The notes beneath the pieces were generated by a model. It was not told the origin of the DNA, made no database searches, and saw nothing but the letters and a program-made list of their open reading frames with translations. The translations under genes and the position numbers were made by a program. DNA of 64,000 nucleotides from an uncultured Chthonomonadaceae bacterium. Lineage in GTDB: Bacteria; Armatimonadota; Chthonomonadetes; Chthonomonadales; Chthonomonadaceae. The stretch spans positions 96,001 through 160,000 of the forward strand of contig CAWIEK010000053.1 in the NCBI GenBank assembly GCA_963835065.1, read 5' to 3'. Below, piece by piece: positions 23,928 to 48,350 of the stretch (position 1 is its first letter; every line of letters starts with the position of its first letter).

Positions 23928-24413
23928 CTATTCCATGTCCCACTCTTGGGCTTGCTCCGCCAACTCGCGCAACGCCTGACGTTGCTCTTCCCGCTTTCGG
24001 TTTTTATAAAGCATCAGATCCTTAAAGTAAATGCGCCGATGCGTACCGACAGAATGGTACGGGATTTCTTTGTTTTCAACCAGGCGGATAAGGTAAGGAC
24101 GCGATACTCCCAACAAATCAGCGGCCTGTTGGGTCGTTAGTTCCGCAAATATGGGAATGACCGTCACGGCATTCCCATCCGCCATTTCCTTCAGCATCCG
24201 CGTGAACATGCGCAGGGCGCGGACGGGAACGCGCAGAACTTCTGTAGTGCCGTCACCGGCAACAATCTGAATTTGGGCTTCACCTTCGCTGGAAAGATGG
24301 GCTGCAAGTTGACTGCTCGATTCGCGCGCAAGTATCTGATCCTGTTCGCTAGGCGAAGTAAGGTCGTCTCGCTCTTCTAGTTCCAGTGGCATAAGGGTCT
24401 CCTTTGATGACAC
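23928..24413 (-). CDS. excisionase-family HTH DNA-binding protein (antitoxin-like), no PIN partner
   Basis: ELTTQQAADLLGVSRPYLIRL...VGTHRRI. Confidence 0.85.
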   Translation of the reverse strand: MSSKETLMPLELEERDDLTSPSEQDQILARESSSQLAAHLSSEGEAQIQIVAGDGTTEVLRVPVRALRMFTRMLKEMADGNAVTVIPIFAELTTQQAADLLGVSRPYLIRLVENKEIPYHSVGTHRRIYFKDLMLYKNRKREEQRQALRELAEQAQEWDME

Positions 24414-24518: not shown

Positions 24519-25079
24519 TTACGCCTCAAACGGCCAGCCGGTGATTTGGGCGAGCAGAGCGCCTAATTGCTCTGCCCAGGCGGTACGGTCTGCTTGTTCA
24601 AAATCAGTCAGAAAATGTTTTTGCCCGCCTTTGTGCAGGGTCAGAGCCGCGCTGACATACACGCTTCGTTGGATCATCTGCATTTGCAGCGTCGCGCCTG
24701 CGTACCGCTTTTTCCAGCGCAGGCCCAGGAGGGTATGCGTAATTTCCAGGCTGTCCGGCCCCGCAGTCCATTCCACTTTGCCGACAGTTTTCAGCAGAAA
24801 TTGCGCCAGCAAATACCCGGCCAGGCCAATCACGAAAATGCCCATCAGCAGCAGGGCGGTACGGTCATTGCGCCGCAAAAACGACAACACCGCTCGCCCG
24901 GAGCCAAGCGCAAGCAAGCCGCCAAACACGACCACGCCAAGCGCCAACTCTTCCACAGCCTTGCGCGTTTGTGGCGGCGGTAATACGATCTGCGTTCTCC
25001 CATCCGGCAGGGGCATAATCATCACGCCGGCTGGGGGCACAACCGGCAGGTTGTCGTCAGAGTCAACATTGGTTTCCAA
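24519..25079 (-). CDS. hypothetical two-TM membrane protein
   Basis: TTG start after a GAGGTG RBS; two hydrophobic helices. Confidence 0.65.
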   Translation of the reverse strand: METNVDSDDNLPVVPPAGVMIMPLPDGRTQIVLPPPQTRKAVEELALGVVVFGGLLALGSGRAVLSFLRRNDRTALLLMGIFVIGLAGYLLAQFLLKTVGKVEWTAGPDSLEITHTLLGLRWKKRYAGATLQMQMIQRSVYVSAALTLHKGGQKHFLTDFEQADRTAWAEQLGALLAQITGWPFEA

Positions 25080-25132
25080 AGAACACCTCGCAAGATTCTC
25101 TGAAGGATTTAGAAAAGACAAAAAGACACAGA

Positions 25133-25405
25133 AAAAAGAGCAAAATAACGCGAAAAAAGGCGAACCTTTTGCTCCACACAATCGTCTAAATAGTAGAATA
25201 CAGTCTACTATTCAAATGTTAGACACCGGAAGGGAGGTGCCAGTCCTATGTTTCACCCCTCCCGTTCGCCCTGACGCCGCTGAGGCCCTGATGCCTCTCT
25301 CCTACAACCAGACACAACGAGACATCGGGCTGGAAGCGCTGTATTGCCAAGATTTCGACGATGACTCTACATATCTTTTTTCTACCTGCCGCTTTCCCAA
25401 CGCTT
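25133..25405 (+). ncRNA. duplicated unit, copy 1: ECF-type promoter, SD, 8-codon ORF (25248-25274, MFHPSRSP) and structured RNA
   Basis: High similarity to 48026-48350 (minus strand). GAACC-16 bp-CGTCTA; GGGAGGTG; covarying stem. Confidence 0.6.
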
Positions 25406-25499
25406 CCAAGATTTCCCGTTAGCAAAGGTTGAGTTCCCCGCTGGTTCGAAAACTTAAAGATTTACAAACCCTGAGAGCCTGTCCCAACAGGCGCGGCAT

Positions 25500-25551
25500 T
25501 TGCGTCCGCAGGACGCTTGTACTTTCCTGCCGGGGATTTTCAACCCCCGGC
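25500..25551. repeat. REP-like palindrome (GCCGGGGATTTTCAA.CCCCGGC family)
   Basis: Copies also at about 31665-31690, 44320-44342 and 44389-44479; often paired with GCGTCCG.AGGACGC. Confidence 0.75.
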
Positions 25552-25562
25552 CTGAGATAGAT

Positions 25563-26342
25563 TTACAAACCCTGAGCGCCCTCCGTATTTGTGTAGGGCA
25601 TGAGGAAGCGTATCGCCTCCTGAATGTGTTCGTCCCAATACTCCCAGGTATGCGCGCCGGGAAATTCGTGGTACTCGTGGGCAAATCCCAATTGATTGAG
25701 ATGCGCGTGGAAGGCGCGGTTGGATTCGATGAGAAAATCATCCACGCCGCAGTCAATGCGCAGGCCGGGGCGTTGCGCAGGGGCAAGTTTGGCGGCAAGC
25801 GCGAACAGGTCATGCGGCCCGCCCACCGGGTTTTCCCCGACAATCCGCGCAAACTCCCGATTAAACCCCGGCCTGATTTCCTCCCCGGAAATGGGAAGCG
25901 GAAAATTGCCGAAACTCATGGCTCCCGAATGGCTGACCGCCGCGCAGAACAGATCGGGATATTTCAGGGCGAACTTGGCCGCGCCGTACCCGCCCATAGA
26001 AAGCCCCGCCACCACGCGCCCGGTTCGCTCCGCCCGCGTCTGAAACATCGCGTCCACATAGCCGACCAAATCTTTTACAATGGCCGACTCCCACGCCATG
26101 CCCTGCTCCGCGTCGCTGTAGAACCCCCTGCCGCCGTCCGGCATCACCACAATCAGGGGCAGGCCGGCGACATAGCGCTCGATGCTTGTCCGGCGCTGCC
26201 AGACCGTATTATCATCCGACAGGCCGTGCAGCAGGTACAAAACCGGAAACGGCCCCTGCGTGTGCTGTTCCGGCAGCAGAATATCGGCAGCCGTCGCTTT
26301 TTGCAGCGCGTTGCTGTAAAATTTCAGTTCACAAAATGCCAT
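25563..26342 (-). CDS. alpha/beta-hydrolase esterase (putative esterase family)
   Basis: LYLLHGLSD, GLSMGGYGA, DCGVDDFL, GAHTWEYW. Confidence 0.9.
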   Translation of the reverse strand: MAFCELKFYSNALQKATAADILLPEQHTQGPFPVLYLLHGLSDDNTVWQRRTSIERYVAGLPLIVVMPDGGRGFYSDAEQGMAWESAIVKDLVGYVDAMFQTRAERTGRVVAGLSMGGYGAAKFALKYPDLFCAAVSHSGAMSFGNFPLPISGEEIRPGFNREFARIVGENPVGGPHDLFALAAKLAPAQRPGLRIDCGVDDFLIESNRAFHAHLNQLGFAHEYHEFPGAHTWEYWDEHIQEAIRFLMPYTNTEGAQGL

Positions 26343-47970: not shown

Positions 47971-48025
47971 GCAAAACCCCCCGTGGAAAGGATAAAAAGA
48001 CAAGGATGAAGGATGAAGGATGAAG

Positions 48026-48350
48026 AAAGCGTTGGGCAAACGGGTAGGTAGAAAAAAGGATATGTAGAGGCAGCGTCGAAATCTTGGCAATGCAGCGCTT
48101 CCAGCCCGCTGTCTCGTTGTGTCTGGTTGTAGGAGAGAGGCGTCGTGGCCTCCAAAGCGTCAGGGCGAACGGGAGGAGTGGGACATGGGCCTGTACCTCC
48201 TTTCCTGAGTAAGTAGTTGATAGTTGATAGTTGATAGTTGATAGGAACTCGAACTTTCAGCCTTCGTCTCTATGTAGACGGTATTCTAGTGTTTAGACGG
48301 CTGTGGAGGGCGAAGGGTTCACCTTTTTTCGCGTTGTTTGATTCTTTTTT
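48026..48350 (-). ncRNA. duplicated unit, copy 2: ECF-type promoter, SD, 8-codon ORF (48160-48186, MSHSSRSP) and structured RNA
   Basis: GAACC (48316-20)-16 bp-CGTCTA (48294-99); AGGAAAGGAGGT; an extra (CTATCAA)n tract in the leader. Confidence 0.6.

Follow-up and report, generated by a model that had tools for sequence, protein, structure and literature searches.

A genus-restricted dispersed repeat with a promoter-like motif, a short open reading frame and covarying hairpins in a Chthonomonadaceae bacterium

A repeat unit with two copies in the window

We analysed a 64,000-nucleotide (nt) stretch of contig CAWIEK010000053.1 from an uncultured Chthonomonadaceae bacterium (the window), which contains two copies of a compact unit, copy 1 on the forward strand and copy 2 on the reverse strand. 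The initial annotation had described a duplicated module consisting of GAACC-N16-CGTCTA, a strong Shine-Dalgarno site (GGGAGGTG and AAAGGAGGT), an open reading frame (ORF) of exactly eight codons (MFHPSRSP and MSHSSRSP) and a structured RNA. Every sequence feature that it listed was recovered in place in both copies, and the unit appears to be self-contained, with a promoter-like motif resembling those of extracytoplasmic function (ECF) sigma factors, a genuine-looking micro-ORF and covarying hairpins. The supposed duplication is really 2 of 162 copies found with nhmmer in the window's own genome (G000; 8.0 Mb, 71 contigs), and these belong to a repeat family restricted to one genus of soil bacteria, represented by G000 and two congeners (G001 and G002). 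The features of the two window copies are as follows.

25133-25161 (+): A-rich left border AGAAAAAAGAGCAAAATAACGCGAAAAAAGG, where similarity among copies begins
25162-25188 (+): promoter-like motif, GAACC (25162-25166), 16 nt, CGTCTA (25183-25188)
25191-25210 (+): 5' hairpin TAGTAGA/TCTACTA at the predicted transcript start, seen in the sequence and recurring in most listed copies
25232-25239 (+): Shine-Dalgarno site GGGAGGTG, 8 nt before the ATG
25248-25274 (+): eight-codon micro-ORF MFHPSRSP, ending CCC-TGA-C
25275-25281 (+): fixed 7-nt spacer from the stop codon to hairpin H1
25282-25297 (+): hairpin H1 (GAGGC, loop CCTGAT, GCCTC), 100% paired in 55 sequences
25298-25318 (+): C/A-rich, G-poor linker TCTCCTACAACCAGACACAAC
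25319-25367 (+): hairpin domain H2, with outer helix GAGACATCG (25319-25327)/CGATGACTC (25359-25367)
25335-25349 (+): near-invariant H2 loop AGCGCTGTATTGCCA
25368-25383 (+): conserved tail forming the right border of the unit, TACATA and then a T-run (25376-25381)
48040-48350 (-): copy 2, same family; covariance-model match at 48043-48210 (-), 178.6 bits
48320-48294 (-): promoter motif of copy 2, GAACC (48320-48316), 16-nt spacer, CGTCTA (48299-48294)
Copy 2 leader (-): a hairpin and (CAACTAT)n heptad repeats
Copy 2 Shine-Dalgarno site (-): AAAGGAGGT
48186-48160 (-): micro-ORF of copy 2, MSHSSRSP, followed by H1, H2 and the T-run

Copies 1 and 2 are 86.7% identical over 180 nt (E = 1e-53) and 80.8% identical over the 78 nt of the promoter part, a similarity far beyond chance. 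The GAGGC/GCCTC hairpin is present in both, and the compensatory change reported earlier is real: the stem GAGACATCG/CGATGACTC of copy 1 is GAGACAGCG/CGCTGCCTC in copy 2. TACATA is the final 6 nt of a conserved CTCTACATA motif, the first 3 nt of which lie inside H2. The left border AGAAAAAAGAGCAAAATAACGCGAAAAAAGG may act as a UP-like element, or may form one arm of a 9-nt terminal inverted repeat made of A and T.

In the family consensus, an A-rich left border (AGAAAAAAGAGCMAAAYAACGCGAAAAA) precedes the promoter-like motif, a 5' hairpin (AGTAGA..TCTACT) lies between this motif and the leader, and the Shine-Dalgarno site is GGGAGG, its end 9 or 10 nt from the ATG in 142 of 153 copies. H1 takes the form GAGGYC-loop-GCCTC, and the tail is CTCTACATAYYC followed by the T-run. 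The 15-nt H2 loop (AGCGCTGYATTGCCA) is near-invariant: among 55 sequences from three species, 54 differ at most in having C or T at Y, and in the remaining one, a G001 copy, the alignment differs just before the loop. An optional leader module (a hairpin plus tandem heptads, for example (CAACTAT)n) was found in roughly 61 of the 162 copies with a rough pattern. Leader heptads, between the promoter and the Shine-Dalgarno site, are (CAACTAT)n, (CAACTCT)n or (CCCTAAAA)-like, and (CATCCTT)n heptads lie 3' of the T-run; heptad repeats occur at window positions 48211-48240 (-) and 48005-48030 (-) and in many other copies, which differ in the number of units. Beyond both borders, copies pass into a mosaic of other repeat modules.

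Copy number and range across genomes

The 155-nt core is present in 162 copies in the 8.0-Mb genome, 160 of them full length (BLASTN and nhmmer) with nhmmer scores of 115-173.5 bits, and nhmmer detected no decayed fragments of the core in this genome down to an E value of 1e-3. The whole unit spans ~270-330 nt and contains no transposase gene; its sole kept ORF is the micro-ORF of 8-11 codons. The two lowest-scoring G000 members (C30:36855-37000 and C30:37947-38092 (-); 115 and 118 bits) are near-identical neighbours ~1.1 kb apart, with ATT in place of ATG at the ORF start and without the usual promoter.

Among 41 related genomes, BLASTN recovered the core in 3: G000 and its two congeners. With a covariance model, the two congeners have 47 and 13 copies and 39 genomes from 22 other genera of the family have none. 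A pattern scan of species-representative genomes returned at least 28 stretches; 26 among the matches listed fall in two Chthonomonadaceae (Armatimonadota) records, one is a chance match in a 'Sorangium'-titled record with no covariance-model match, and one is a true full-length core (115.8 bits) in a Solirubrobacteraceae-titled genome. The latter (L094/L098; G058:C7:46174-46348 (-)) is single-copy, lacks the promoter module, encodes the micro-ORF MLCLLPLPP and lies within a 538-kb contig of a 65-70% GC genome, between flanks of 61-71% GC. These flanks are only distantly similar to G000, and the copy could represent horizontal transfer of the transcribed part only. The same kind of scan of a metagenome collection gave three stretches, all chance matches (best 16.9 bits), and zero family members.

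The proposal that the unit matches no known RNA family held up: Rfam 15 gave no match in the 64-kb window at gathering thresholds, and a search of 25000-25600 with E values up to 10 gave five matches far under threshold (best 19.1 bits against a threshold of 57). No tRNA or tmRNA was found in the DNA searched. Full-text literature searches, part of them framed on Planctomycetes (thought to be the wrong phylum), returned no description of the family, and the passages on 'repeat' in PMC4959169 make no mention of such elements.

Translation signature of the micro-ORF

We compared the micro-ORFs of the 162 own copies and 30 copies from the two congeners (192 in total), among which the frame ending before H1 was resolved in 185. 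The last codon is proline in all 185, with all four proline codons in use (in G002, CCC 7, CCG 6, CCT 3 and CCA 1), and the stop follows directly as TGA (165), TAA (19) or TAG (1). The last three residues are RSP (130), RPP (33), LPP (12), HPP (6) or RAP (4), while N-terminal residues vary freely. Spacing from the stop codon to H1 is 7 nt in 178 of the 185 copies. By usual ribosome geometry, a ribosome with the stop codon in its A site would have H1 at its mRNA entrance.

Lengths in the 162 copies are mostly 8 codons (107) or 9 codons (40), with four copies each at 10 and 11; the frame is broken in 5 copies and the ATG absent in 2. Of the 53 copies whose length is not 8 codons, 48 differ by whole codons between ATG and stop; because of shared descent these represent fewer independent events, at least five as judged by eye. 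One diverged subfamily, in G001, has another upstream region, GTG/TTG/CTG-type starts and frames of 6-25 codons, and still ends CGN-CCN-CCN-stop (R-P-P-stop). Translation predicts such freedom at third positions, exchange of stop codons and indels that keep the frame; a purely structural constraint does not. The constraints on the unit, with proline-stop kept through synonymous changes at a fixed distance from the hairpin, look translational.

The Shine-Dalgarno site had also been proposed to pair with CCTCCC inside the ORF. The pairing itself is common, being seen in 142 of 154 local folds. In 141 of 154 copies, however, composition-matched ORF shuffles fold more strongly than the real ORF, so the pairing is an effect of base composition, and we rejected selection for sequestration of the site.

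The arrangement of a UGA-C stop, a 7-nt spacer and then a hairpin is reminiscent of recoding signals. Read in the +1 frame from CCC-T-GAC, 123 of 155 copies are open across the whole core; the end of this frame is not conserved, about one-fifth of copies meet early stops, and the variable sites inspected are all non-synonymous (Y/H, L/Q, D/A). Over the 162 cores, frame 0 is open in 52, +1 in 86 and +2 in 90, and in copy 1 frame 0 meets a second TGA after two codons. With no frame consistently open, we rejected a longer ORF made by +1 frameshifting or read-through; the core beyond the micro-ORF is not coding.

Covarying hairpins

Further homologues show covariation in H1 and in the H2 outer helix, which bears out this part of the structured RNA claimed earlier. 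The structure was specified by hand on a 55-sequence alignment from three species that was fitted to a related model, which favours structure. In this alignment, H1 is paired in 100% of cells, with one pair seen as AU, UA and CG, and five of the nine pairs of the H2 outer helix have changes on both sides (for example, GAGACA/TGTCTC, GAGAAC/GTTCTC, GAGAAG/CTTCTC and GAGAAA/TTTCTC), giving six pairs with double changes in total. Overall, 92.7% of cells are paired, a value attained by 0 of 500 shuffles (89.0% paired); with slid controls the figure is 35-56%. We regard a structured RNA as only moderately supported. The conserved T-run lies 8-9 nt after the H2 stem.

Promoter-like motif and sigma factors

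The motif AAC(C/T)-N16-18-GTC(T/C)(A/G) lies upstream of 148 of the 162 copies, 104 of them with N17 alone. A stricter form, GAA(A/C)C-N16-17-(C/T)GTCTA, occurs 161 times genome-wide, 134 times at elements and 27 times elsewhere. No sigma-70-type promoter was predicted at the unit, and 'ECF-type', the regulation proposed earlier, is used here as a label for a resemblance only. Passages of PMC4959169 describe Chthonomonas calidirosea, a cultured member of the family, as having many ECF sigma factors and a dispersed gene order.

One sigma gene shares the elements' core motif. A 232-residue Sigma70_r2 (ECF-type) gene at C56:28774-29472 in G000 (locus C56:28724-29472, corresponding to L061:125-873) has GAAAC-N17-TGTCTA 23 nt upstream of it, making it a candidate autoregulated or cognate ECF sigma factor, and possibly a chance match among 57 sigma-like genes.

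Genomic context

Genes were called with a self-trained ORF caller (6,138 genes, 79% coding sequence). Only 6 of 162 cores overlap a called gene, and 148 have a called gene on both sides. Relative to the element, the upstream/downstream neighbours of these 148 are opposite/opposite in 61, same/opposite in 33, opposite/same in 32 and same/same in 22. The downstream gene is thus convergent in 94 of 148 copies (P = 0.0013), with a median of 90 nt to its 3' end, and within tandem gene pairs the element is antisense in 61 cases as against 22 (P = 2e-5). The elements are therefore intergenic with an antisense bias, which fits antisense use, or selection that keeps a live promoter from firing into a gene. 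Both window copies belong to the opposite/opposite class and, as reported earlier, both meet the 3' end of a convergent gene, which for copy 1 is an esterase (25563-26342 (-)).

The initial annotation had further suggested a leader whose gene has been lost. Among the co-oriented downstream genes, the nearest 20 are of diverse, unrelated kinds: 16 match different Pfam families, one VWA gene is duplicated, and Sec and YidC genes are absent. An ABC-F gene (Uup-like, 686 residues; G000:C19:86916-89255, L121) has an element copy 125 nt upstream, the most similar of all G000 copies to several G002 copies; orthologs of this gene in four relatives have no element upstream (covariance model with filters off). 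With no shared downstream gene and no conservation of the ABC-F linkage, we rejected a leader role for the unit.

Upstream of copy 1, and transcribed away from it, lie an HTH_17 protein (23928-24413 (-)) and a 220-residue ORF (24519-25181 (-)) that has no Pfam family and whose called start reaches too far, into the left border of copy 1. A second type of repeat, present in very high numbers, lies at 25495-25550 (+), with flanks at 25459-25481 and 25557-25579. It consists of two hairpins, GCGTCCGCAGGACGC then TTGTACTTTC (terminator-like), and CCGGGGATTTTCAACCCCCGG, and is bracketed in the window by a ~22-nt direct repeat, AGATTTACAAACCCTGAG(A/C)GCC. This second repeat recurs upstream and downstream of many element copies and looks like a repetitive extragenic palindromic (REP) sequence; its depth in two DNA runs is 0.55 and 2.4 times that of the element core.

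Turnover of copies

Several sites are occupied in more than one species (L037/C3:217470, L058/C69:17748, L043/C48:43642 and, in G001, L052/C37:72614). At these shared sites, positional orthologs are not each other's closest relatives (identity rank 6-139) and fall in different subfamilies; G001 copies cluster together, and G002 copies cluster with one G000 subfamily. At a further site with conserved flanking genes (L057), the element is present in G002 and absent from G000. In this region (L057:1700-2300 in G002, G000:C68:131134-131289), G002 has an extra small gene of ~150 codons that is absent from G000, and GTATAATGAGACACGG before the next gene is kept in both. Median pairwise identity among G000 copies is 82%, and alleles private to one copy number only 33 in 152 columns of 162 copies, too few to decide on selection. 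Taken together, these comparisons point to turnover of copies, through gene conversion or repeated insertion, and away from quiet vertical descent.

We also looked for hallmarks of transposition. In many copies, the borders AGAAAAAAG and CTTTTTTCT form a 9-nt inverted repeat, CTTTTTTCT being the reverse complement at the right border, and this repeat is a low-complexity A-run plus T-run. No target-site duplication was definable from the borders, and the comparison with the empty L057 site is too diverged to give one. No autonomous parent element was found in G000: all 162 core hits are short elements, as are 101 of 102 BLAST hits of the promoter module. An HUH/Y1 transposase was rejected as a genus-specific mobiliser because it is present in 17 of 26 related genomes. 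The 162 dispersed copies suit the mobile RNA element suggested earlier, although mobility looks DNA-level; we infer that the family spreads or homogenises as DNA, by mobilisation like that of miniature inverted-repeat transposable elements (MITEs) or by gene conversion.

Matches in sequencing libraries

A soil metatranscriptome library kept as contigs (X1) contains a 197-nt contig identical over 25311-25359. Upstream of this part, the contig has a variant of H1 and linker that none of the 162 + 30 copies carries. The contig shows that a further family member was present in the sample, and is not evidence of transcription. A presumed RNA run (X6) contained next to nothing.

Interpretation

We tentatively favour, as the best single explanation, that each copy is a stand-alone small-RNA (sRNA) gene with an ECF-type promoter, a translated pausing micro-ORF and a near-invariant loop, within a genus-restricted dispersed repeat. 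The unit would be transcribed from its own ECF-type promoter, and a ribosome would load at the strong Shine-Dalgarno site and translate 8-11 codons. The ribosome is predicted to pause at proline-stop, exactly 7 nt before H1, and H2 may then present its near-invariant 15-nt loop to a putative partner. Pausing is suggested because termination after a C-terminal proline is known to be slow and because TnaC and RAPP-type peptides have R-x-P arrest motifs.

Several results weigh against this explanation. The promoter argument is limited by the strict motif being at chance level away from the elements (27 occurrences, ~24 expected from composition), so that the ECF regulation proposed initially is not supported beyond the resemblance of the motif. 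A full promoter profile including flanks gave a median of 41.7 bits at elements and 12.6 bits for the best gene upstream region, and the number of sigma genes near elements is as chance would give (5 of 57, against 4.8 expected); no cognate sigma factor could be assigned on these results. As regards RNA structure, minimum free energies of the two window copies are no better than those of shuffles (z = +0.58 and +0.70), which is the part of the structured-RNA claim that did not stand, and the consensus fold of 25 G000 copies is weak (-12.2 kcal/mol). Hairpin covariation cannot tell RNA from single-stranded-DNA hairpins, and no canonical intrinsic terminator was called after the core. Contigs prove neither transcription nor RNA ends, and a DNA repeat of 160 copies is prone to DNA carry-over. 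Searches of the genome for a trans target complementary to H1, the linker, the H2 loop or the tail (BLAST-short) gave chance-level matches (best E = 0.005). Finally, few private mutations together with subfamily swapping are expected from recent bursts or gene conversion of a selfish element.

A more ambitious version of the sRNA explanation, which we consider a long shot, is a 'ribosome trap' regulon. Here, one ECF sigma factor would simultaneously fire ~160 near-identical mini-genes, whose transcripts would hold ribosomes at R-x-Pro-stop against the hairpin while the loop recruits a partner, so that the family would act as an RNA-based global translation brake or sensor of termination capacity that has multiplied like a transposon.

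The strongest competitor, unlikely in our view yet to be taken seriously, is a purely selfish MITE- or REP-like DNA repeat, in which hairpins and loop are sites for a trans-acting transposase or recombinase, possibly on single-stranded DNA, and the promoter, Shine-Dalgarno site and micro-ORF are cargo kept only through recent master copies. Such a repeat would account for the dispersal of copies in a mosaic with other repeat modules, copy numbers that differ by species (162, 47 and 13), polymorphic site occupancy, positional orthologs from different subfamilies, the 33 singleton alleles, the inverted repeat at the borders (AGAAAAAAG/CTTTTTTCT) and the single promoterless copy in an unrelated 65-70% GC genome. 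However, the inverted repeat is an A-run and a T-run with no definable target-site duplication, the genome has no autonomous parent, and the Y1 (HUH) transposases are not specific to the genus. Moreover, a DNA-only role predicts neither the 7-nt spacing from stop to hairpin nor a proline-stop that persists, despite synonymous and stop-type changes, across subfamilies that are 60-70% identical.

Less probable still is a portable, translation-gated promoter acting in cis. Stress transcription would read into the neighbour, mostly antisense into a convergent 3' end, and a ribosome paused at proline-stop would shield the linker from Rho, as in tnaC, and so set read-through. Passages of PMC8450073 and PMC3902921 describe stalling at proline-UGA in tnaC as blocking Rho. 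The frequency of convergent downstream genes and their short distance are as this model expects, as are the missing canonical terminator and the C/A-rich, G-poor linker 3' of H1, near proline-stop. On the other hand, the model leaves the invariant H2 loop and the conserved T-run unexplained, 54 of 148 copies face co-oriented genes of unrelated function, and selection to keep a strong promoter from firing into the downstream gene would account for the orientation bias equally well.

An orphaned leader or attenuator of a regulated gene, or a longer protein made by recoding at CCC-TGA-C (+1 frameshift or H1-stimulated read-through), is very improbable and largely refuted: the frequently open +1 frame and the one ABC-F-linked copy speak for it, and the inconsistent frames, the +1 product without a conserved end, the element-free ABC-F orthologs and the heterogeneous downstream genes speak against it.

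Dispersed repeats in bacteria are usually viewed as selfish or structural DNA, and sibling sRNA families are small, with a handful of genes each. If expressed, this family of 162 would exceed in size every sRNA or micro-ORF gene family known from a bacterium, and would join mobile repeats, ECF stress signalling and ribosome pausing in one system. If silent, it would be a well-defined repeat with gene-like features that persists without host function, and a warning for annotators of sRNAs and small ORFs.

Comparison with known systems

The C terminus of the micro-ORF peptides invites comparison with arrest peptides. In the passages of PMC8450073, PMC10951233 and PMC7897499 that describe them, TnaC (ending R-P-UGA) and the RAPP-type ApdA and ApdP likewise have a C-terminal Arg-x-Pro at the arrest or stop position; UGA predominates in the repeat family as well, and sequence beside the stop could plausibly be masked by a paused ribosome. 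The TnaC-type combination of a proline codon and a UGA stop is present in the family, with proline in 185 of 185 and TGA in 165 of 185 copies. However, TnaC has 24 residues, a conserved Trp/Asp sensor, a rut site and tnaA downstream, whereas the repeat family has 8-11 residues, a variable N terminus and no common downstream gene. RAPP peptides (R-A/G-P-P) arrest with Pro-tRNA in the A site, whereas in the repeat family the stop directly follows R-x-P, so there is no A-site Pro-tRNA. Leaders of the RAPP/SecM type lie upstream of a Sec or YidC gene, whereas the repeat family has no regulated downstream gene (no tnaA, sec or yidC), and arrest leaders are single-copy, as compared with 162 copies here. 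A resemblance to type I toxin-antitoxin systems, raised by the initial annotation, does not extend to the product: those systems combine a hydrophobic toxin of ~20-60 residues with an overlapping antisense RNA, whereas the peptides of the repeat family are 8-11 residues long, rich in Pro, Arg and Ser, and not hydrophobic.

Among mobile elements, the family resembles MITEs in being short, present in many copies and without a transposase, and differs in having no autonomous parent with the same ends in G000. Pneumococcal BOX elements and the mosaics of REP sequences and bacterial interspersed mosaic elements (BIMEs) are modular, with optional internal modules, and are intergenic and interleaved with other repeats. 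The repeat family shares this mosaic, modular build, including its optional hairpin and heptad module; BOX and REP elements lack a promoter-plus-ORF unit, and no sequence or Rfam match to them was found.

Judged as a candidate stand-alone sRNA, the family has an ECF-like motif in 148 of 162 copies and lacks an intrinsic terminator at the 3' end. Sibling sRNA families (csRNAs, Qrr and LhrC) consist of 2 to ~9 homologous genes, each with its own copy of a stress-type promoter and a conserved single-stranded segment. In comparison, the repeat family has 162 members, a translated-looking ORF, mobile-repeat behaviour and putative expression.

Another comparison, by description and not by a sequence test, is with the Correia repeat enclosed elements (CREE) of Neisseria, which are short, transposase-free repeats in at least 100 dispersed intergenic copies with promoter activity and hairpins, and whose orientation and position affect neighbours. 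Shortness, the lack of a transposase, dispersed intergenic copies, a promoter and hairpins are common to both. Unlike CREE, the repeat family has no 26-bp terminal inverted repeats, TA duplication or sequence similarity to them; its promoter-like motif points inward, where it would drive the unit's own Shine-Dalgarno site, micro-ORF and hairpins, and all functional parts are intact in nearly every copy.

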